A DNA stretch of 34,117 bases from Patescibacteria group bacterium (GCA_015489565.1 WFZM01000004.1:1-34117), one strand, 5' to 3'. Shown: positions 5,491 to 26,788, numbered from the stretch's first letter. The notes: generated by a model from the sequence alone, not told the origin. A program made the numbers and translations.

Positions 5491-6003
5491 ATGTTAGATG
5501 CACAATATTTAGACATTTTTTTGCGCTTGTTGGCAGCTGCCGCGTTCGGGCTTCTTATAGGCTCTGAAAGAACATTGGCCGGAAAAGTAGCCGGTATGCG
5601 AACATACGCTTTAGTATCTCTGGGCTCAGCCCTATTTGTGATAACGGGACTTCTTATTACTAACGCATATTTGGACAGGACCCCTTTTGACCCGGCAAGG
5701 ACTCTGGGGAGCATAATTACCGGTATAGGTTTTATAGGTGCAGGCTTGATTTTAATGCGAGACAAACTGGTCAGAGGCTTGACCTCTGCGGCGGGTCTTT
5801 GGGTCTCGGCCGGAGTTGGCGCGGCTGCAGGTTTTGGCTTCTATAAACTGGCCTTTTTCAGTAGCATACTTACGGTTTTGATTTTTACTGCGGTCTGGTT
5901 CTTAGAATTCGGCCTGAAAAGATGGTGGACGGCCAAGGGTCCTAAAAAAGAAGAATCTACTGAAAGAAAGCGCAAAACTTTAAAAGCGAAAATGAATGAC
6001 TAG
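5491..6003 (+). CDS. MgtC/SapB family membrane protein
   Basis: N-terminal MgtC-family signature LRLLAAAAFGLLIGSERTLAGKVAGMRTYALVSLGSALF. Multiple TM segments. Confidence 0.8.
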   Translation: MLDAQYLDIFLRLLAAAAFGLLIGSERTLAGKVAGMRTYALVSLGSALFVITGLLITNAYLDRTPFDPARTLGSIITGIGFIGAGLILMRDKLVRGLTSAAGLWVSAGVGAAAGFGFYKLAFFSSILTVLIFTAVWFLEFGLKRWWTAKGPKKEESTERKRKTLKAKMND

Positions 6004-6790
6004 ATTTTACAATCCAAAAAGAAATGCGGCTTGGAATTACGGCGGAAAAAATTGGAAACTCTCACGGTCTAAAATAGACTTGTTCTTAGACTGTCCACGC
6101 TGTTTTTACCTAGACAACAAACTCGGAGTAGCGCGCCCTCCCGTATATCCTTTTAATTTGAATTCCGCTGTAGACGCATTGCTTAAAAAAGAATTTGATA
6201 TTCACAGAAAAGCGCAGAGCAAGCACCCGCTGCTTGATACATACGGCATAGATGCTGTGCCTTTCCAGCATGAAAAAATGGACGAATGGAGGGACAACTT
6301 TAAAGGGGTACAATTTTTTCACGAAAAAACAGCAATGACCATAAGCGGGGCTGTGGACGATATTTGGATTAATCCTGCCGGAGAGCTTATTGTGGTAGAT
6401 TACAAGTCAACAAGCAAAGACAAGCGCATAGAAGCACTGGATGAGGACTGGCACGACGGCTATAAGCGCCAGATGGAAGTCTATCAGTGGCTCTTAAGAC
6501 AAAACGGTTTTGAAGTTTCAGATACCGGATACTTTGTATACGCCAATGCAAGCAAAGAAGAAGAAGCCTTTGACGGAAAACTGATATTTGACGTAACCTT
6601 AATAGCCCACAAAGGAGACGACAGCTGGCTGGAGCCAACTATTTTACAAATCAAAAAAGTCTTGGAAGACCCGCGTGTACCCCTTGCTTCTCCTGAGTGT
6701 GACTACTGCAGATACAGAGAAGCGGCCGGCCAAGCCCTGGTAAAACAACAAAAAAGCAAAGCTAGTCATTCCTCAAAGAAAAATAAATAG
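5996..6790 (+). CDS. PD-(D/E)XK nuclease family protein (RecB/Cas4-like, four Cys)
   Basis: GAVDDIW, VVDYKSTSK and RQMEVYQWLL match the RecB/Cas4 nuclease motifs (GxhD, D/ExK, QhxxY). CPRC near the N-terminus and CDYC near the C-terminus. The ATG overlaps the MgtC-family stop by 8 nt. Confidence 0.65.
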   Translation: MTRFYNPKRNAAWNYGGKNWKLSRSKIDLFLDCPRCFYLDNKLGVARPPVYPFNLNSAVDALLKKEFDIHRKAQSKHPLLDTYGIDAVPFQHEKMDEWRDNFKGVQFFHEKTAMTISGAVDDIWINPAGELIVVDYKSTSKDKRIEALDEDWHDGYKRQMEVYQWLLRQNGFEVSDTGYFVYANASKEEEAFDGKLIFDVTLIAHKGDDSWLEPTILQIKKVLEDPRVPLASPECDYCRYREAAGQALVKQQKSKASHSSKKNK

Positions 6791-9563: not shown

Positions 9564-10481
9564 TTAACACCCGCCACCGCCGCAATCTCCATTTGGAATA
9601 ATACTACCGCCGCCGCTACTACTGCTTGACGAACTTTGAGTTCCGACTCCTATCGTTGAGCATGAACTACCACAGCACAATTGCATCTGAAGTACCATAT
9701 TGTTGAGTGTGGATAGGTAAGTTTTACCATTAGCTCTTCCTGTAAAAGCTAGAATCCCGTCTTGCTGCCAATTAGACCAGTGATTACCATCTCCGGCTAT
9801 CCTGTAAGCTATAGAACAAATCTCTCCACTACCTTGAATTTTGGCTCCAAACACAGCGTTGTTAGGCCTTGATAATTTTCTTGTTTTAGCGACTCCTCCT
9901 TCTTCAATACCGTCTTGTACTGCCGGAACACTGGCATGATGAGCCTGATTTATATCTGCAATAGTACTTCCATCCCACTGGTCTTGATTAATGGCGTATT
10001 CTATAGACATAGGAGCGGGTGCCTGTTGACACTCAAGCTTTAATTGAGCTTTACCGGGATTTACCCAAGAGCCGGGCGACTGAGTACTTGCTCCGGAATA
10101 CCACTGACTATCAAAGTTAGCCCATGGCGTACTTTCCCAATTAGACCAGCCGTTGGAATCTCCTCCTATTCTGTACCACAAACGGCACATTTTACTAGAA
10201 ACGGCATTGCTCTCACATATCCAAGCATTGTTTTTCCAGCCCAATTTTTTATCTGCACCCCAGCAATCCGGAGGTACAAGCTCGCCACCGGGCCCAACTC
10301 TGGAGTACAAATATTCAAAATTCTCCGCAATCTTTTTAGATTCAATCATGGCTCCGGATTGTATCCAATCTGTCCCATGCCAGACGGCATTCCAGGCAAA
10401 AGTAAATCCTGTTGCAAAAATAATTCCAATTAATAATCCTATAAAAATACTTTTGTTTAATTTACTTGGGGCTTTTTTCAT
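9564..10481 (-). CDS. secreted Cys/Trp-rich protein, paralog A (conserved mature N-terminus, variable C-terminal modules)
   Basis: ATG 10481 is preferred over TTG 10490. Signal peptide MKKAPSKLNKSIFIGLLIGIIFATGFTFA|WN. 63 aa are identical to paralog B. Two internal modules (CRLWYRIGGDSNGWSNWES and CSIAYRIAGDGNHWSNWQQ). Ser/Gly/Cys-rich tail. Confidence 0.7.
   Translation of the reverse strand: MKKAPSKLNKSIFIGLLIGIIFATGFTFAWNAVWHGTDWIQSGAMIESKKIAENFEYLYSRVGPGGELVPPDCWGADKKLGWKNNAWICESNAVSSKMCRLWYRIGGDSNGWSNWESTPWANFDSQWYSGASTQSPGSWVNPGKAQLKLECQQAPAPMSIEYAINQDQWDGSTIADINQAHHASVPAVQDGIEEGGVAKTRKLSRPNNAVFGAKIQGSGEICSIAYRIAGDGNHWSNWQQDGILAFTGRANGKTYLSTLNNMVLQMQLCCGSSCSTIGVGTQSSSSSSSGGGSIIPNGDCGGGGC
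10209..10397. repeat. left copy of a 189-bp inverted repeat (pairs with 13331-13519)
   Basis: Identical to the reverse complement of 13331-13519 at 186 of 189 positions by manual alignment (three transitions). Also visible as mirrored shadow ORFs 10153..10539 (+) and 13237..13521 (-) sharing a 64-aa identical peptide. Confidence 0.95.
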
Positions 10482-10489
10482 ATATGCCA

Positions 10490-10518
10490 ATTATCGCAAA
10501 TTAATTTGCTATGAGCAA
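10490..10518 (-). promoter_or_regulatory. promoter of paralog A (TTGCTC-17-GATAAT with TGc extension)
   Basis: The minus strand reads TTGCTC, a 17-nt spacer ending in TGC, then GATAAT. 8 nt to ATG 10481. Confidence 0.5.
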
Positions 10519-10553
10519 GAAGTTTTCCACAATGGATAAAAGCTTTTAAAAGT

Positions 10554-12005
10554 CTAGTGTTCGTTTTTCTTGAATACTCTTGAGATTTTACGCAATATAA
10601 AAAATAGACTAAGCAGCATAACGGCGAATAAAACGAATGTCATCTTAACCCCAAAACTTGTGGTATTTGTCGCGTCTTGTTTGTGTTTTGAAAGCTTGAC
10701 TCTGAAGTCTTCCCATGCTGCTTTCTCCGCTACGGCGTCAAAGGGCTGCTTTTCTCCCAAGCCGTCTTTGGTAGCGCTTATTTTCTCGCCTCCGTTTACC
10801 ACGACGCTGCCACCTCCGGCTTTGGCGCGATAGGAAATGCTCCCTTCAATAACTTTTAGAGTCGAGCTTTTGCCGTCGTCTTCCAAAACGAAAGTGGTGC
10901 CCTTTATTCCCAAAACCGCTTGGTTCATGGTAATGTCCATGCTGCCGTCCTTTATCATTCTTTTTATGTTTGCCCAGATTTTTCCGGCAACCATGCGAAT
11001 CTTGCTTTTCCTGCCAGGAGGAGTATCAAAAACAATGGTTGATTCTGGACAGAGTACAAAAGTGCTCATGTCGGCAAAAGAGATAATCGCTGAGCTATCT
11101 TCTTCAGTGTGGACAGCCTCGCCAACTTTTAAAATGTCGTCCATCTCGGCGATTCGCGAATCTTCCGGATCGCTGATAGGGTACACTATCACTTGTCCGC
11201 TAAGGTCGCTAAAACGCGCGCCGGAATCGCGTGCCAGCGCAAGCTCGCCTAAAATGAACGGCATAACTGTACGTTCCGTTTTTATTTTAGAGAGAGTTTC
11301 AAAACTCACGCCACATACATTTCCCTCCTCAAAGCCGTAGAACGGATCTTTTGTCTCTATTTTCAACGCTGGCATGTAACTATGGTGCGGCAGAACTGAG
11401 GCCTTCATAGGTCTGTCGTTCAGAAGAAGAAACTTTACTTCCTTGCCATCTATGACTTGCGCCTGTGCTTGAGGAGCTTTACCCATGCGATATGGCGGCA
11501 ACTCATAAAAGGTGCCTTCTGGCCCGCCGGTAAAACGAAAGCTGTACTCAACAGGTGCAAGCTCAGGCGCCTCTTTTGCCGGCTCGTATTGCAAGCGAGT
11601 CGTCTCGCCGGGGCTCTGCAACTGAGCTGGGAGCTTCTTCTCCACCGCTATCATTCCCGGACTTAGCTGGTACTGCAAGGTCAGCTTGGCTAATCCGTGC
11701 TCCGGGCGCCACAGCGGTAAAACTCCTTTACCCATTTCTCCAACATTGTAAAACTCAAGCCTGTAATCAACTCCGATAATGTCGACTATGTGTTGCCCCG
11801 GGTATATTTCTTTCTTGTAAAGCAGTTTGCCGTCTTTGACCTCGGCTTCGTAAGCGATTTGTTTATCCAAATGACCGCTCGCCACAAGTTTTGTAATGGA
11901 AACTTTCGGAGTGATGCTCGCCAGCGCCAAAAATGGCTTGAATAAAATAAGCAATATGACAATAGCAAAAATTTTATAGATAGATAGTGTTTTTGTGTAC
12001 TCCAT
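10554..12005 (-). CDS. FecR-domain protein with N-terminal signal peptide and C-terminal TM anchor
   Basis: FecR-like pattern (FSDLSGQVIVYP ... LKVGEAVHTEEDSSAIISFADMSTFVLCPESTIVF ... VLGIKGTTFVLEDDGKSSTLKVIEGSISY ... VVNGGEKISATKDG). N-terminal hydrophobic leader and C-terminal hydrophobic segment TFVLFAVMLLSLFFIL. Confidence 0.62.
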   Translation of the reverse strand: MEYTKTLSIYKIFAIVILLILFKPFLALASITPKVSITKLVASGHLDKQIAYEAEVKDGKLLYKKEIYPGQHIVDIIGVDYRLEFYNVGEMGKGVLPLWRPEHGLAKLTLQYQLSPGMIAVEKKLPAQLQSPGETTRLQYEPAKEAPELAPVEYSFRFTGGPEGTFYELPPYRMGKAPQAQAQVIDGKEVKFLLLNDRPMKASVLPHHSYMPALKIETKDPFYGFEEGNVCGVSFETLSKIKTERTVMPFILGELALARDSGARFSDLSGQVIVYPISDPEDSRIAEMDDILKVGEAVHTEEDSSAIISFADMSTFVLCPESTIVFDTPPGRKSKIRMVAGKIWANIKRMIKDGSMDITMNQAVLGIKGTTFVLEDDGKSSTLKVIEGSISYRAKAGGGSVVVNGGEKISATKDGLGEKQPFDAVAEKAAWEDFRVKLSKHKQDATNTTSFGVKMTFVLFAVMLLSLFFILRKISRVFKKNEH

Positions 12006-12157
12006 AACTCAAAAAATATTAAAGCTAAGTTAATACTAACATTTATGTAGTATAATTCAAACCATGATTTATAGTGGCAAGCAGATAAAATAATATTTTG
12101 TATGTTACAATGCACAGTACTTTAATAAACATTTAAATATTTAAAAAATAAAAACTT

Positions 12158-12304
12158 ATGAAAGTTAAAATTTTTGTGCTTATACTAATGGTTAATATAT
12201 TAACTTTTATTGCGCTTAGTCCACAGCAGTCTAAAGCCGCCCAGTTAAACTCATCGCAAATATCAGCCATAATAAACCTCCTTAGTACGATTCCAAATAT
12301 ATAG
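12158..12304 (+). CDS. candidate small secreted peptide (48 aa)
   Basis: Not in the ORF track (under 60 aa). MKVKIFVLILMVNILTFIALSPQQSKA|AQLNSSQISAIINLLSTIPNI has a textbook n/h/c signal peptide. TGtTACAAT box at 12103-12111. It overlaps an antisense 45-aa ORF, so it is uncertain. Confidence 0.35.
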   Translation: MKVKIFVLILMVNILTFIALSPQQSKAAQLNSSQISAIINLLSTIPNI

Positions 12305-12324
12305 AAGCAGAACAAATTTCAATA

Positions 12325-12609
12325 TTGGATAAGAAAAATTTTATTATAGGAGATTTTTGTTATATCTATACTCGCCGCTTATCTGACAACTCATTGAGTC
12401 TTAAGATGCCTCTTGGAGTTTACGCAACTGAATGTCGCGGGTTCACAACACGTGCAGGGGAAAAATATCGTATAAAATTAAAAGCTGTGGCTTGCGATAA
12501 ATCAGATACCAGTAGAATAGGTTTGGATGATAAGCTCGCTTGTGATTTAACAAAGGGGTCAAGACAGGATGTTTCGGGGTATTCAAACTGGTTTACTATT
12601 ACAGAATAA
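12325..12609 (+). CDS. hypothetical protein, possible orphan module related to paralog C-terminal domains
   Basis: TTG start; the next in-frame Met is codon 28. Contains EKYRIKLKA ... SGYSNWFTI, reminiscent of the YRI...WSNW modules in paralog A. No signal peptide. Confidence 0.3.
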   Translation: MDKKNFIIGDFCYIYTRRLSDNSLSLKMPLGVYATECRGFTTRAGEKYRIKLKAVACDKSDTSRIGLDDKLACDLTKGSRQDVSGYSNWFTITE

Positions 12610-12627
12610 AATAATGAGATTTATTAT

Positions 12628-13218
12628 ATGAATATAGCATGCACAACTATACCCTTGCGCAACTGTGAAGTTCGTGCTAGTATGCCCCAATGTCTGAAGG
12701 AATTAAAAAAAATAGGAAATTTTGCCCCAGAAGCCGTAGGTATTTCAGAATTACAGCAAATCAAACTAAAGGCTCGCAAGTGCTATCTACAAAAAGCCTT
12801 GTACGAGGATAATTTTGGCAATATAGAAGACTGGGCAGAGCTGTCGCTGGTCATCGGCGAAGAGCAATTTAGATTGGTTCAGAAAAGTATGCTGCAATTT
12901 ACTTATCTTATGCCGTATATAATGATAAACGAAAAAGAAGTACTAGTCTTGTTGGAATTTCACGAGTACTATAGCATGTTACAAACAGGAATTGGCTACA
13001 GCTTTCTTGTAAGTCTAGGAGAGCGCATTGAATTAATTAGTATATCTAACCCAAAACCAAAATATTCAGCACAGTTTCCGGACTTGACTACACTGCAAGA
13101 GTACAAGCGCAAAGGTAGGCTAATAATAAAGCTACAATCCCACCTTAAAAATCAAAAAATGGCAATGTTTATAGAACAGCCATATGCAAATGGGCTATTT
13201 GCGAATTACTTTCACTAA
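12628..13218 (+). CDS. hypothetical cytoplasmic protein
   Basis: 196-aa ORF with an ATG start, no signal peptide and no recognisable family. Confidence 0.5.
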   Translation: MNIACTTIPLRNCEVRASMPQCLKELKKIGNFAPEAVGISELQQIKLKARKCYLQKALYEDNFGNIEDWAELSLVIGEEQFRLVQKSMLQFTYLMPYIMINEKEVLVLLEFHEYYSMLQTGIGYSFLVSLGERIELISISNPKPKYSAQFPDLTTLQEYKRKGRLIIKLQSHLKNQKMAMFIEQPYANGLFANYFH

Positions 13219-13234
13219 AAACTAAAATCTCATA

Positions 13235-13243
13235 TGTTATAAT
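13235..13243 (+). promoter_or_regulatory. extended -10 promoter (TGtTATAAT), 9 nt before ATG 13253
   Basis: TG at 13235-13236 and TATAAT at 13238-13243. Confidence 0.55.
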
Positions 13244-13252
13244 TCCCAGTAT

Positions 13253-14020
13253 ATGAGATTTGTAAAAATAAGTAAAAAATTCTTTTTATCGTTATTGTTT
13301 GGACTGGGTCTTGCCGCGGGTTTTAGCTTCGCCTGGAACGCCGTCTGGCATGGGACAGATTGGATACAATCCGGAGCCATGATTGAATCTAAAAAGATTG
13401 CGGAGAATTTTGAATATTTGTACTCCAGAGTCGGGCCCGGTGGCGAGCTTGTACCTCCGGATTGCTGGGGTGCAGATAAAAAATTGGGCTGGAAAAACAA
13501 TGCTTGGATATGTGAAAGCACAAGCTTAAAAGGCTGTAAGTTGCGCTATAAACTAATAGACTCGGACGGAGTTGAATCTGATTGGGCCGAGACAGCTTTC
13601 GGTGGTGAAGGAGCCGGTGATTGGGTTTATGGCCCTTATTTGACTACTAATTATCTTGGAAAAAGCAAGTTAAAAGTGGGCTTATACTGTGAAGATTCCA
13701 ATCTTAAGATGGGTTATAAAATACGAGGGAATCGTGGCCCTTACTGGGATAACGGTATGACCGTTGTGGAATCCATAAAAGGACAGTGGGTAGACGGTGC
13801 ATGGAGTGGTACCGGGTCATACAGCTGTGCCATCAAAGGTGGAGACGGAGCTTGCGGATCTTCGGTAAAGGATTATGTAAGCAATGGCTGTACCACACTG
13901 GTAGAACTTGTAGACAATAGAGGTCGGGTTAGCACAGATACCGGTGTAGAGAGTACCAAGACACGAGCAGCTACTAGAGGATATGCCAAGTTCCGTATGG
14001 GTATAAAGTGTAGTAAATAA
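13253..14020 (+). CDS. secreted Cys/Trp-rich protein, paralog B
   Basis: Signal peptide MRFVKISKKFFLSLLFGLGLAAGFSFA|WN. Residues 27-89 are identical to paralog A. The C-terminus is divergent (CKLRYKLIDSDGVESDWAET ...). Confidence 0.7.
   Translation: MRFVKISKKFFLSLLFGLGLAAGFSFAWNAVWHGTDWIQSGAMIESKKIAENFEYLYSRVGPGGELVPPDCWGADKKLGWKNNAWICESTSLKGCKLRYKLIDSDGVESDWAETAFGGEGAGDWVYGPYLTTNYLGKSKLKVGLYCEDSNLKMGYKIRGNRGPYWDNGMTVVESIKGQWVDGAWSGTGSYSCAIKGGDGACGSSVKDYVSNGCTTLVELVDNRGRVSTDTGVESTKTRAATRGYAKFRMGIKCSK
13331..13519. repeat. right copy of a 189-bp inverted repeat (pairs with 10209-10397)
   Basis: See the left copy. The block starts at codon 27 (Ala of FA|WN) and ends at codon 89 (..WICES) of paralog B. 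Confidence 0.95.
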
Positions 14021-14066: not shown

Positions 14067-15224
14067 ATGCCTTTTTCAAAGAAAGAAAAACAACAAGCTG
14101 TACTGCTTATAGATTTATACAAAAGCGCGGTTGATTTTAGTTTGGTATACACCAAAAATACAGAGTGTGATTTTATCAACAGTACAGACACTCTAGACTA
14201 CCTGCGCATAGAAGAGCCTAAAAGAGAACTTAGGGAAGAATCTCTGCGCAATGCACTGCAGGACGCATCTAAGAAATTAAACAGAAAACTAAAAAAATTG
14301 GGAATAGATGACTTTGTGATTTTTGTTTTACCGCACGGCGATTTATCCAAAATGCAAAATGATGAGTTGTATGTGAAGTTGCCGGAAAAAACAAATATAA
14401 ACGAAGACAGTATAGCGGACATAGTGGAAAAACACCATTTAAATGAAAGCTCGTTCAAGAATCTGCTGGAAAACAAAGAAAATGAAAAAATGTTTTTCAA
14501 ATCACGCAAAGTCATATCGCGTATATCCCCGAACCTTTATAGGACAAAATCATGGCGCAGGTCGGATATAAGTGAACTCAGTTTTCTTGTAACACAAACT
14601 TTAGTTCAAGAAGATTTATACAAAATATTGCAAGAAGAGCTCCAAGCTTTGTACCCTGAAAAAAAGCTGATTTTTATGAACCCCAATGCTCTTTTGGTTA
14701 TAAGTTTGGAAAATAAACGAAGAGAAATGGGGCTTGCGGCAAACTTTAATATCTTGGATTTAGGAGCGGAGTTCATGTCCTTTTTCCAAATATACGATGG
14801 TCATGCCATAAGCTCTCATTTACTGCCCAAAGGGGTAAACCATTTAATACGCAAGATAGATTCTTTTGAAGAAAGCTTTGAATTGTCAGAATCTGCGCTA
14901 AGAGCCTATCTTAGCGGTAATTGCAAGGGAGAAAATTGTAAGAAAATCAAATCCCTTCTTGAAGAATTTGAAAAGGAGCTTAAGGAAGAAATATCAAAAA
15001 TGAAATTAAATCCTTTCTTGAAATCAGACATAATAATCATGAGCAACCCGGACTTAAATAAAAATATAGTGATATGGCTATCAAACGTTTTTGCAAAGCT
15101 TCTAGGCGAGCATTTGCAACTTGATTTGGATTTTGAAAAAAACAGCAGGAATATAATGAGACAATATTTCTGCAGTAATAAACTTATAAACGATAAAAAA
15201 GACAGAATAATAATATTTGAATAA
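14067..15224 (+). CDS. hypothetical protein, possibly a degenerate actin-fold (PilM/FtsA-like)
   Basis: 385-aa ORF. AVLLIDLYKSAVDFSLV and FNILDLGAEFMSFFQIYDG resemble the phosphate-1 and phosphate-2 motifs of ASKHA proteins, but the conserved glycines are partly missing. The assignment is weak. Confidence 0.4.
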   Translation: MPFSKKEKQQAVLLIDLYKSAVDFSLVYTKNTECDFINSTDTLDYLRIEEPKRELREESLRNALQDASKKLNRKLKKLGIDDFVIFVLPHGDLSKMQNDELYVKLPEKTNINEDSIADIVEKHHLNESSFKNLLENKENEKMFFKSRKVISRISPNLYRTKSWRRSDISELSFLVTQTLVQEDLYKILQEELQALYPEKKLIFMNPNALLVISLENKRREMGLAANFNILDLGAEFMSFFQIYDGHAISSHLLPKGVNHLIRKIDSFEESFELSESALRAYLSGNCKGENCKKIKSLLEEFEKELKEEISKMKLNPFLKSDIIIMSNPDLNKNIVIWLSNVFAKLLGEHLQLDLDFEKNSRNIMRQYFCSNKLINDKKDRIIIFE

Positions 15225-15284: not shown

Positions 15285-16559
15285 ATGAATCCGGAAAAAA
15301 AACACAATAAACACTCAATAAGAGATATAGAAATATCAAGGGTGAACAGTCCTGCAAAAGCAGGCAGAGTCAATAATCCAAAAAAGAAATTGAACAAGAA
15401 CGTAGTTTCCAGAAAGCGAAAAAAAAGCCTGGGACTCACTTTTGTGGCAAGTGTTTTGCTTTTGGTTGCCAGTGTTTTTTTGCTTTACTCCTTCCTTAAA
15501 CCTACCAAAGCAACGGTTGAAATACAGACCTTTTCTAAAAACGTACTCTTGACGGATGATCTTGTGCACGTGGCATACAAGGAAGCAGAGCCCGGACAGC
15601 TGGGGTTCAAGGTCCTGGAAAATAACTTTGAAAAAAGTGCTGATATTCAAGCCGATAAATTTGAATACAGTGAAGACAAAGCCTCCGGAACCCTTACCGT
15701 ATACAACAACTATTCAAACAAGCCTCAAAGAATAATAAAAAACACCAGGTTTAAATCTCCGGATGGCAAGATATATCGCGCTAAAAAAGCCTTCACTATA
15801 CCGGGTAAAAAATCCGGTACCCCGGGGCAGGTAGACGTAAAAGTTTATGCAGATGAAGCCGGCGAAAGTTATAATTTGAAATCTGGTACAAAATTTACAC
15901 TGCCGGCACTAAGTGGAGATGCTGCAGAGGGTATTTATGCTGAGGCCAAAACCGATATAAAAGGCGGCTTCAAAGGCAAAAGGGCCAGCGTATCTGAAGA
16001 AAAGAAAGAGCAAGTCTTGGTGGAGCTAAAAGAAGCTCTAAAAAAAGAAGCTTTGCAAAAGGCTTTGCTAAAGTTGGGCCCAGACTATATAAGCTTCCCT
16101 GATGCTGTTATGGTGGAGTTTGAAGAGCCGGAATACAGCTACAGCCAAAACAGCGCAAATATAAAACTTAAAGCCAAAGCTTTGGTGCCGGTATTTAACA
16201 AATACGACTTTGCAAGAGAGGTCTTGGCTCCAGCAGACGCCGAACTTGACTTTGACACAGGAAATAAAATATACATAGATAACCCGGAAGACTTGGAACT
16301 TAAAGTAACCAACAAAGATTCACTCGACCTTGAGGAGGACGAGCTTTTGAAGTTCACAGCAAAAGGGACGGCAGTAGCTAAATACTATCTGGACAAAGAA
16401 GCGATAAAGAAAGAGCTTCAGGGTAAGAACGAAACTGTTGTAAGATTTCTAAAAGAAGCTTACCCGGCAATTGAAAAAATAAACAGCATGATAGAGCCTG
16501 TCTGGAGAGATACTTTCCCTGAAGACCCTCAAAAAATACAAATAGTGGAATTGAAATAA
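15285..16559 (+). CDS. hypothetical membrane-anchored extracytoplasmic protein
   Basis: 424-aa ORF. Basic N-terminus, one TM segment (LGLTFVASVLLLVASVFLLYSFL) and a large beta-rich ectodomain. GTLTVYNNYSNKPQRIIKNTRF ... GQVDVKVYADEAGESYNLKSGTKFTLPAL faintly recalls baseplate-J-like repeats (low confidence). Confidence 0.55.
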   Translation: MNPEKKHNKHSIRDIEISRVNSPAKAGRVNNPKKKLNKNVVSRKRKKSLGLTFVASVLLLVASVFLLYSFLKPTKATVEIQTFSKNVLLTDDLVHVAYKEAEPGQLGFKVLENNFEKSADIQADKFEYSEDKASGTLTVYNNYSNKPQRIIKNTRFKSPDGKIYRAKKAFTIPGKKSGTPGQVDVKVYADEAGESYNLKSGTKFTLPALSGDAAEGIYAEAKTDIKGGFKGKRASVSEEKKEQVLVELKEALKKEALQKALLKLGPDYISFPDAVMVEFEEPEYSYSQNSANIKLKAKALVPVFNKYDFAREVLAPADAELDFDTGNKIYIDNPEDLELKVTNKDSLDLEEDELLKFTAKGTAVAKYYLDKEAIKKELQGKNETVVRFLKEAYPAIEKINSMIEPVWRDTFPEDPQKIQIVELK

Positions 16560-25759: not shown

Positions 25760-26788
25760 TTAAGACTCAAGTTTAAATCTTATGATAGCGCCCAAGTTCA
25801 TACTTTGCTCACTTATATATTTTTGAAATTCTTTAGCGCTTAAATAGTTTTCCTTATCCCAAGAAAATAAATATTTAATTCCCGAAGCACTTTTTATAAC
25901 ATAAAGCTCTCCCTGAGATTTAATATTTGCCGAGATTGCTCGGGCAGATTCAAAAAGATATACGGAAAAGCTCAGTACACGAGCTTGAGGCTTAAAATTA
26001 AAGTACTGCCCAGCTTTGGCAATCACACCATAATTATCAAGAAAAAGATTTTGTGACCTTTCTTTTTTCTCGCTTTTTCTAGATGCTTTAAGGATGCTAT
26101 TTGATTCCAGCTCAAATCTTTGTATTAAAATTTGCAGACTGGAAATCAAGTTTCTCTCGGTGGGACTAAACTGCTCAAATTGCAATTTCCTGGAGCGAGA
26201 TTTCTCAGATTTAAAACTCGCTGATGACAAACCTAAAAAAGCAGGAGCATCTTCCAGGTCAAGTTTTAAACGTACCAGCAGATAAACTAATACCTTACGC
26301 GCTCTTCTTATAATTTCCCCGCCTGCATGTTTTTTAGAAATTATAGTTTTTTCCACACCGTAGAAGTCAGCCAGATAAGAAAGGATAAATTCCGCAAGCT
26401 CTTTTTTACTTTTCGGGCAAAAGTCAAGTCCCATCAAGGCTACAGCACTTTCATCACGAAAATCTATACAAGCCTTCAGATTCGCTATAAGTTTTTTTTC
26501 ATCACGGTCAAAACTAAGCTTTGCCAAGACTCTTGAAAGGTGGTGAACGCTACTGTGGTCCATATTAAGCTCAGAGGCTATAGACGAGCTTGGCAGCTTT
26601 AAATACTCCTTTGCTAAATAGACAAAAATTTTTTTAGCTCTGACTATCTTGCTTTTTCGCGAACCGTTTGTAAGCTCCATGGGGTGGAAGCTATAAAAAT
26701 CGGCTAAAATTTCTTTTATATGCACTATTGTTTGTTTCAAGCTGGGGGCACTGCTCATTATTTCCCCGGAATAAAGTTCCATGTTCAT
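25760..26788 (-). CDS. protein with two tandem DnaA C-terminal (domain IV)-like HTH modules, no AAA+ domain
   Basis: Module 1: IVHIKEILADFYSFHPMELTNGSRKSKIVRAKKIFVYLAKEYLKLPSSSIASELNMDHSSVHHLSRVLAK. Module 2: ILSYLADFYGVEKTIISKKHAGGEIIRRARKVLVYLLVRLKLDLEDAPAFLGLSSAS. Both follow the DnaA domain IV pattern (R..i..aR.iamYL...l...S...Ig...DHstV). No Walker motifs. Confidence 0.6.
   Translation of the reverse strand: MNMELYSGEIMSSAPSLKQTIVHIKEILADFYSFHPMELTNGSRKSKIVRAKKIFVYLAKEYLKLPSSSIASELNMDHSSVHHLSRVLAKLSFDRDEKKLIANLKACIDFRDESAVALMGLDFCPKSKKELAEFILSYLADFYGVEKTIISKKHAGGEIIRRARKVLVYLLVRLKLDLEDAPAFLGLSSASFKSEKSRSRKLQFEQFSPTERNLISSLQILIQRFELESNSILKASRKSEKKERSQNLFLDNYGVIAKAGQYFNFKPQARVLSFSVYLFESARAISANIKSQGELYVIKSASGIKYLFSWDKENYLSAKEFQKYISEQSMNLGAIIRFKLES

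Follow-up and report, generated by a model that had tools for sequence, protein, structure and literature searches.

A 189-bp inverted repeat between two divergent secreted-protein genes of a Patescibacteria scaffold is probably a tract of past gene conversion

We analyzed a 34,117-nucleotide (nt) stretch of DNA from a Patescibacteria group bacterium (GCA_015489565.1, WFZM01000004.1:1-34117; the whole stretch is called the window hereafter), which is nearly all of a 34,129-bp metagenomic scaffold (REYS20-1_SAMN12239311, scaffold_965), and in which two genes pointing away from each other, gene A and gene B, encode predicted secreted proteins that share a near-identical block of 189 bp. We conclude that the identity of this block is probably due to gene conversion, namely, a single past, non-reciprocal transfer from gene B to gene A, and that the block looks like an ordinary recombination product, with no sign of a programmed switch. 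An interpretation made earlier from the DNA alone (the sequence-only reading) had taken the locus for a candidate invertible or gene-conversion cassette of surface proteins. Below, other loci and contigs carry numbers beginning with L, and proteins of the family to which the products of genes A and B belong carry numbers beginning with P.

Two old paralogs share a young, near-identical tract

We found two inverted arms of 256 nt with 89% identity in a repeat search of the window (10208-10463 and 13265-13520), within which 10209-10397 and the reverse complement of 13331-13519 match at 186 of 189 positions, and both copies are translated into the same 63 residues (AWNAVWHGTDWIQSGAMIESKKIAENFEYLYSRVGPGGELVPPDCWGADKKLGWKNNAWICES), exactly as the sequence-only reading had reported. 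The two arms share exact runs of 92 and 83 nt, and the window contains exactly two occurrences of a 35-mer taken from the block, while 100 shuffles gave an expectation of 0. The mismatches, at block positions 9, 102 and 186 (AAT/AAC, GTT/GTC and GAG/GAA, respectively), are all synonymous third-position transitions. No third copy of the block and no third family member was found in the window by tblastn. Contigs of three further assemblies, namely, the NCBI metagenome-assembled genome (MAG) assembly GCA_027043545.1, a Logan assembly and one from a second ENA sample, contain this block between the same flanks, so it is real and not an assembly artefact.

The block corresponds to the N-terminal module of the mature proteins (N-module). 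In gene B, its codons 1-31 are the helix module found throughout the family, and its codons 32-63 are a B-type linker with a Cys hairpin. The AlphaFold2 (AF2) model of the gene A product (predicted local distance difference test score, pLDDT, 74; strands over residues 98-270) shows IESKKIAENFEYLYSR as a helix and KKLGWK/NNAWICES as a beta-hairpin, and this hairpin ends exactly at the block end; the model of the gene B product has a pLDDT of 60. Because the modelled hairpin ends where the block ends, the 63-aa block appears to be one whole structural module and not an arbitrary stretch.

The two edges of the block differ. On the 3' side, the ungapped identity between genes A and B drops at once to ~25%, i.e., the random level, which bears out the earlier description of flanks that cannot be aligned; on the 5' side, however, that description does not hold, as ~60% identity persists for ~60 nt through the signal-peptide segment, and the -10-like box and the start region can be aligned as well. 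Since this 5' similarity persists, genes A and B are old paralogs over their whole length with a young tract laid on top of them, and the tract shows as an inverted repeat because the two genes point away from each other.

Synonymous divergence points to conversion from gene B to gene A

We estimated synonymous (dS) and nonsynonymous (dN) divergence by the Nei-Gojobori method. Between genes A and B, the block has a dS of 0.086 and a dN of 0, compared with a dS of 1.7 and a dN of 0.43 in the signal peptides, and a dS of 2.5 and a dN of 1.16 in the C-terminal portions (heads). For the 90-nt helix part, we also compared 12 modules taken from 9 loci. The two window copies are 99% identical in this part (97% at third positions), whereas other pairs in the family share 65-80% DNA identity with ~50-60% at third positions, and two paralogs on one contig of L009, one of the closest relatives, share 71% (50% at third positions).

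These values make it very unlikely that the identity arose with no recombination at all, be it by purifying selection on an essential module or as an assembly or chimera artefact. Although the protein sequence of the helix part varies very little throughout the family, selection on the protein leaves synonymous sites unprotected; since near-identical peptides elsewhere keep only ~50-60% third-position identity, protein-level selection is ruled out as the cause. Moreover, in A-type orthologs conservation does not extend to the linker half of the block, and an artefact is excluded by the recurrence of block and flanks in three other assemblies. Even less probable, and in our view hardly worth retaining, is a diversity-generating retroelement or another system of templated mutagenesis acting on a pair of template and variable repeats (TR/VR). 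A near-identical repeat pair associated with a surface-protein gene loosely recalls such a pair, but the window contains no reverse transcriptase, the only 3 mismatches are synonymous transitions and not adenine-specific, and the repeat occupies the conserved N-terminal module instead of a variable C-terminus that binds ligands.

The linker indicates the direction of the transfer. The linker SRVGPGGELVPPDCWGADKKLGWKNNAWICES (SRVGP...WICES) is native to the B-type orthologs P0007 and P0008, which have the same single-hairpin linker as gene B, whereas the A-type orthologs P0002, P0003 and P0004 (42-68% identical to the gene A product) carry a double-hairpin linker instead (RLPDPN...C...C...C...C); the A-type genes of L023 and L026 likewise have a linker of the double-hairpin kind. 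When the DNA of gene A is aligned with that of its ortholog L028, the head is 79% identical and the signal peptide plus module 69%, while the linker cannot be aligned; the two sequences become homologous again at 10191, which is 17 nt past the block. The phylogenetic signal is thus incongruent, as the head of gene A groups with its ortholog L028 and its linker is identical to that of gene B. Since the linker is native to B-type orthologs and foreign to A-type ones, we take gene B as the donor and gene A as the recipient.

The proposed event would be one non-reciprocal homologous recombination, presumably RecA-dependent (this role is our assumption) and seeded by the conserved module DNA, through which the whole module of gene B was copied onto gene A. 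The copied 189 bp would comprise the helix part and the single-hairpin linker of gene B, and would have replaced the original module and double-hairpin linker of gene A; three synonymous changes would have followed, and the copies would now be evolving independently.

Several points weigh against our interpretation. The direction of transfer rests on a handful of orthologs, and the module of gene B itself looks imported when compared with L003, being closest to a third paralog, P0009, found in a relative. The orientation evidence given below comes from assembled contigs, so a minority inverted sub-population is possible. Finally, the role that we infer for the family rests on its distant members only, as the heads of genes A and B match no entry in Pfam, PHROG, PDB or BFVD.

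The imported look of the gene B module leads to another source for the block, i.e., a third, now-absent family member similar to P0009, as present in L009, that gave its module to genes A and B in separate conversions, which we regard as quite unlikely. The helix part of the block is 92-93% identical (80-83% at third positions) to the 215-aa, P0009-like gene that L009 carries between its B gene and its 385-aa gene, which is about the genome-wide identity level of the two organisms, whereas its identity to the positional B ortholog is only 74-78% in L003 and L009; P0009 also has the C-terminal tail of gene A. However, P0009 diverges right after ...AENFEYL and does not have the VGP...WICE linker that makes up the second half of the block, this linker occurs with B-type heads (P0007 and P0008), and one conversion is more parsimonious than two independent ones sharing both end points.

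One past event rather than continuing homogenization

We dated the conversion relative to L003, the closest relative, which shares ~91% nucleotide identity with the window. The dS between the window and L003 is 0.22 for infA and for the signal peptide of gene B, 0.44 for rpoA and for the 385-aa gene, and 0.60 for the 424-aa gene. Since the dS of the block is lower than that of these flanking genes (0.2-0.6), the conversion post-dates the split from L003. The block divergence between genes A and B (1.6%) is in turn at least ~10 times the 0-0.15% seen between contigs from other assemblies.

The contigs L002 (carrying gene A) and L006, L007 and L008 (carrying gene B) have the diagnostic single-nucleotide polymorphisms (SNPs) with their parental flanks on both sides, as in the window scaffold. 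Continuing conversion is not supported, because repeated conversion would erase the three SNPs, and neither is repeated inversion, because crossovers would re-associate the SNPs with the other flanks. Since the three SNPs are fixed in every contig recovered from other assemblies, the two copies evolve independently. Repeated homogenization, i.e., concerted evolution, was not found. The sequence-only reading had suggested checking in related genomes whether the block is homogenized within genomes, and had named its own downfall as relatives in which it is not; the paralogs of the relatives are indeed not homogenized. Accordingly, of its proposal of an ongoing gene conversion or inversion, the conversion stands (the block dS of 0.086 compares with at least 1.7 in the flanks), while its ongoing nature does not, given the flank-linked SNPs and the unhomogenized relatives.

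Evidence bearing on an invertible cassette

The sequence-only reading had further suggested that recombination between the arms would flip the interior. If this were a functional invertible cassette, the arms would regularly flip the 2.9-kb interior and produce phase or antigenic variation through the promoter, the signal peptide and the operon partners. We consider this reading quite improbable, although the locus has several features in its favor. Inverted repeats bracket a segment, they are long and similar enough for homologous recombination in view of their exact runs, they lie in frame in both genes so that both open reading frames (ORFs) would survive a flip, and both promoter regions are inside the interior; in addition, one domain of P0054, a distant member of the family, also occurs in the constant region of R64 PilV, an adhesin switched by a shufflon. 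On the other hand, 189 bp of coding homology is far longer than a recombinase site, and no invertase, tyrosine recombinase or other recombinase, reverse transcriptase or transposase was found in the 34-kb window, where we scanned the ORFs at 7.6-16.6 kb and the larger unannotated ORFs with Pfam, the genes of the locus with NCBIfam, and the remainder through precomputed Pfam lists. These scans returned only housekeeping genes and hypothetical ORFs that match no family, in agreement with the earlier statement that no recombinase, reverse transcriptase or transposase is visible.

Neither of the chimeras that a flip would create, i.e., the signal peptide (SP) of one gene with the block and the head of the other (SP_A+block+head_B or SP_B+block+head_A), is present among 5.8 billion protein clusters: the native gene A and the synthetic SP_A+block+head_B used as queries recovered the parents only, and the clusters of P0001 and P0005, the proteins identical to the products of genes A and B, are single-member. 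The edge SNPs at block positions 9 and 186 stay linked to the parental flanks in all four block-carrying contigs from other assemblies, and every contig recovered has the parental configuration in its assembly. The divergent arrangement is also missing in the relatives. L023 and L026 contain same-strand arrays with an A-type gene, then a minimal member of 107-117 aa, then a B-type gene; L003 and L009 have, on one strand, a B-type gene followed by a minimal member and, in L009 only, by the 215-aa member; and L011, L015 and L016 hold single copies in unrelated contexts.

The layout itself offers little to switch. The heads are outside the repeats, and the interior consists of two promoter and signal-peptide units that are ~60% alike, each with a -10-like box, so a flip would change little. 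By the logic of the sequence, it would change the operon partners (the FecR-domain gene and the 196-aa ORF) and would silence neither head. Because only two similar promoter and signal-peptide segments would be exchanged, there is no obvious switch logic. The idea of an invertible cassette is therefore not sustained, given a window with no recombinase, the clusters with no chimera, the SNPs linked to their flanks and the relatives with no divergent pair. A rare RecA-type inversion across the 189-bp repeat is nevertheless physically plausible.

Mosaicism around the module

The gene conversion that we favor is accompanied by other mosaics in the family. In L003, the positional ortholog of gene B is near-identical to it from the promoter across the signal peptide and until ~45 nt into the module, whereas from ~13375 to the stop codon (window 13375-14020; L003 1566-2256) the synonymous sites are saturated, and past gene B the two sequences return to ~91% identity. 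This pattern is that of an allelic replacement of the mature protein, judging from the alignment, with a breakpoint inside the conserved module. Furthermore, P0011 combines a B head with a double-hairpin linker, and P0009 combines the module of the window (92% nt identity) and the tail of gene A ending in IIPNGDCGGGGC (86% nt identity) with an unrelated middle. In view of the breakpoint between gene B and L003 and of the P0011 and P0009 mosaics, the conserved module DNA seems to be a recurrent crossover point in the family.

This mosaicism gives some support to a broader interpretation, although it shows no programmed mechanism. Beyond its structural role, the N-module might serve at the DNA level as a recombination handle through which these host-dependent CPR bacteria reassort fibre or adhesin heads, linkers and promoters between paralogs and strains with no dedicated recombinase, the pair in the window being flipped rarely by RecA to give re-wired sub-populations. 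We think this unlikely. If true, this would be a recombinase-free functional analogue of the invertible segments of tail fibres and of shufflons.

A family of secreted proteins with exchangeable heads

We identified 23 relatives by a word-indexed protein search. A profile of the module (the first ~65 residues) searched against 1.84 billion representative proteins matched 188 clusters at E<=1e-3, 97 of them at E<=1e-10, and in nearly all of the 150 matches listed the module is located at the extreme N-terminus, the few exceptions being internal or weak repeats; side by side with these, P0116, P0141 and P0056 have 2 or 3 internal copies of the module. The members of this family share a layout consisting of a signal peptide ending in FA|W, the N-module, and an interchangeable C-terminal head. 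The consensus of the module is W-N-A-V-W-H-G-T-D-W-I-x-S-G...I-A-E-N-F-E-Y-L-Y, which forms a helix and precedes one or two small Cys hairpins (C-x-G-x-x-K-L-x-W-x-x-x-W-x-C). Both gene A and gene B have the FA|W signal peptide followed by WxAxWxGTxW...G..I.A..IAENFEYL at the extreme N-terminus, and cleavage at FA|W is predicted for both from their sequences and from the conservation of this site across the family.

Genes A and B have no family in Pfam, NCBIfam or PHROGs, and the heads of both are folds of the beta-sandwich type; a Foldseek search of the AF2 model of the gene A product against PDB and BFVD returned nothing at E<1e-3, only generic beta-sandwich noise, and the module profile has no match among PDB sequences. 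In a Pfam census of 133 family members, we found Peptidase_S74, a tail-fibre chaperone, in 7, TSP1 in 7, Hint in 4 and Gly_rich_2 in 3, and PA14, F5/8 type C (discoidin), Fibrinogen_C, GLEYA and Gp10_C in one member each. Matches to tail-fibre and tail-collar PHROGs were found for P0081 (1e-29) and P0134 (2e-49), and a domain of P0054 is also present in the R64 PilV tip adhesin, at residues 239-370 (PilV from NC_005014). The Shufflon_N match in this census was traced to P0054, a distant member, and is uninformative on the locus studied here. A Hint (bacterial intein-like) C-terminal end also occurs in several N-module proteins (the P0017, P0052, P0075, P0116, P0162 group).

Since distant members carry phage-tail-fibre, tail-collar, lectin-like or Hint heads, the family most likely consists of secreted, fibre- or adhesin-like molecules whose base is constant and whose binding heads can be exchanged. 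It belongs to bacteria of the Candidate Phyla Radiation (CPR)/Patescibacteria type, and is uncharacterized, with no Pfam model; a literature search on tail-fibre-like surface proteins of Patescibacteria returned no description of it. Viral contigs in IMG/VR yielded no family relatives (0 loci), whereas GTDB representative genomes gave 4 loci and JGI metagenomes gave 8, all of them free of inverted pairs and of long repeats shared by paralogs. Among species-representative genomes, the nearest named relative of gene B is in a Candidatus Kaiserbacteria MAG.

Several members and neighbors deserve mention in their own right. Minimal members of 104-117 aa, composed of a signal peptide, the N-module and two Cys hairpins with no head, are located at L003 2282-2605, L009 1933-2247, L023 1094-1447 and L026 2940-3263, with none in the window. 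The tandem array is followed in L023 (2649-3308) and L026 (4517-5167) by a multi-pass membrane protein of 216-219 aa with a CVFYPCDL motif, possibly a processing or anchoring partner, of which tblastn detected no homolog in the window. The gene A tail ...GGSIIPNGDCGGGGC-stop (window 9564-9605) is common to the ortholog P0002 and to the otherwise unrelated P0009, and is 86% identical in nt to the tail in L009 (2894-2937). Such a tail might act in sorting or anchoring at the C-terminus, or provide a further recombination handle on the 3' side; it has no match among known CTERM-type models.

Genomic setting

The features of the locus are listed in Table 1. The gene A product consists of a signal peptide, the N-module, an A-type beta-sandwich head and the Ser/Gly tail; P0001 was called on public contigs, and P0005 is found on 5 public contigs.

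Table 1. Features at and between genes A and B, in window coordinates
Feature	Coordinates	Strand	Remarks
Gene A	9564..10481	-	305 aa from ATG 10481 (alternative start: TTG 10490)
Inverted-repeat arm in gene A	10209..10397	-	Probable 189-bp converted tract; mature N-terminal module, 63 aa
Gene A signal-peptide segment	10398..10481	-	~60% nt identity to that of gene B
GATAAT -10-like box, gene A	10490-10495	-	Consensus match only
FecR-domain (LipL45-like) membrane or secreted protein	10554..12005	-	483 aa; directly upstream of gene A, inside the repeat pair
45-aa ORF	12133..12270	-	Called in public records
94-aa ORF	12325-12609		Uncalled by the gene callers behind public records
196-aa ORF	12628..13218	+	Upstream of gene B; kept upstream of the B-type gene in the closest relatives
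TATAAT -10-like box, gene B	13237-13242	+	10 nt upstream of the start codon; consensus match only
Gene B	13253..14020	+	255 aa: signal peptide, N-module and B-type Cys-rich head
Inverted-repeat arm in gene B	13331..13519	+	Likely donor copy of the N-module

The -10-like boxes of genes A and B end ~8-10 nt before the ATG (regions 10479-10495 and 13237-13255), and no Shine-Dalgarno sequence is visible ahead of either gene; this arrangement suggests that the two genes are transcribed from separate promoters into near-leaderless mRNAs. The upstream region is also repeated among the tandem family members in L012.

The 483-aa protein matches FecR in Pfam (6.8e-12) and LipL45 in NCBIfam (3.3e-12), the latter below the curated cut-off. 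The sequence-only reading had placed three small ORFs in the interior, of which the 196-aa ORF is conserved and the 45-aa ORF is publicly called, but the 94-aa ORF is not backed by public gene calls. The 196-aa ORF is 83% identical at the amino acid level to L003_175 (dS 0.21, dN/dS 0.40), has no signal peptide, and has no match in Pfam, NCBIfam or PHROG.

Downstream of gene B are the 385-aa gene (14067-15224), whose product is 97% identical in L003, and the 424-aa gene (15285-16559), whose product has an N-terminal membrane segment and a Baseplate_J or phage baseplate-wedge-like beta-barrel (Pfam 9.8e-5, PHROG_6 3.7e-8). Both adjoin fibre-like genes in L003 and L009 and are absent from L023 and L026. 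One idea that these similarities raise is that the 424-aa protein might be a baseplate-like partner of the fibre-like proteins.

Housekeeping genes fill the window: a prfA/B-type release factor, rpsB, tsf, mnmA, nrdR, alaS and infA, rpsM-rpsK-rpsD-rpoA-rplQ, rplM-rpsI, grpE, dnaK, dnaJ, thrS, tyrS and RNase R. Among them are a stand-alone PDDEXK_1/Cas4-like nuclease (5996-6790, + strand) and a 342-aa protein (25760-26788, - strand) that has the C-terminal helix-turn-helix domain of DnaA only, without the AAA+ part. Rfam RNA and tRNA scans of the window gave no matches.

Two irregularities in the other assemblies fall inside the interior. In GCA_027043545.1, a contig break is located at 12264-12390, where JALUFK010000086 and JALUFK010000177 overlap by 127 bp; we ruled it out as a sign of structural variation, as it sits in the AT-rich interior (GC content 0.34), away from the repeat arms. 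The second sample has a scaffold gap at 12787-12822, and L006, considered as a variant with other upstream genes, was rejected as such, being the same sequence with a scaffold gap.

Significance

If gene conversion is the correct explanation, the locus is a clean textbook example of a conversion tract, and it cautions against assuming a switch wherever divergent surface-protein genes share a long inverted repeat in frame. As a by-product, the analysis yields an undescribed N-terminal module (~188 clusters) that appears to mark secreted, tail-fibre-like proteins with swappable heads in CPR/Patescibacteria-type bacteria. How such bacteria attach to host cells is poorly understood, and the mosaic breakpoints flanking the module suggest how a repertoire of heads gets reshuffled.

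Comparison with known systems

In the G segment of phage Mu and the C segment of P1 (Gin/Cin), and in the R64 shufflon (Rci, PilV), recombination takes place at short sites with an adjacent recombinase, and in the Mu G and R64 type, the alternative C-termini are inside the invertible segment, behind one fixed promoter. Inversions that overlap genes have also been described as partial intergenic invertons (10.1101/2023.03.11.532203). The locus resembles all of these in having inverted repeats in coding sequence, at the junction between the constant N-terminus and the alternative C-termini of a fibre or adhesin. However, it differs from Gin/Cin and the shufflon in that the repeats are 189 bp of coding homology, the window has no recombinase, the heads lie outside the repeats, and two similar promoters lie inside.

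In the pilE/pilS system of Neisseria, the variable part of the gene moves at high frequency from promoterless silent copies to one expression locus. The transfer proposed here is likewise a non-reciprocal transfer of coding sequence between surface-protein paralogs; in contrast, it is the conserved part that would have moved, each of the two genes is complete and has a promoter of its own, and at the scale of the population the transfer is not a recent one.

The family also has a likeness to phage tail-fibre and tail-collar proteins (Peptidase_S74, PHROG), in that distant members carry the S74 chaperone, GNVGIGT-type repeats or collar heads, and that a conserved attachment end is joined to an exchangeable binding end. 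Genes A and B themselves, on the other hand, are without such domains and are sited among housekeeping genes, not in a prophage.

Gene conversion between paralogs is known from the mosaicism of phage tail fibres and from bacterial adhesin and antigen families. Unlike in these adhesin and antigen families, there is here one tract in two complete genes of an uncultured CPR-type bacterium, with no bank of silent cassettes and no sign of repeats. In other respects the locus is like known paralog conversion: the tract is near-identical and sharp-edged within otherwise saturated paralogs, the transfer appears non-reciprocal with the donor left intact, and the tract coincides with the conserved N-terminal module that supplies the homology, while the receptor-binding-type heads stay different. 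Accordingly, the phenomenon of conversion itself is well known, and what is new is this instance of it and the CPR protein family to which it belongs.

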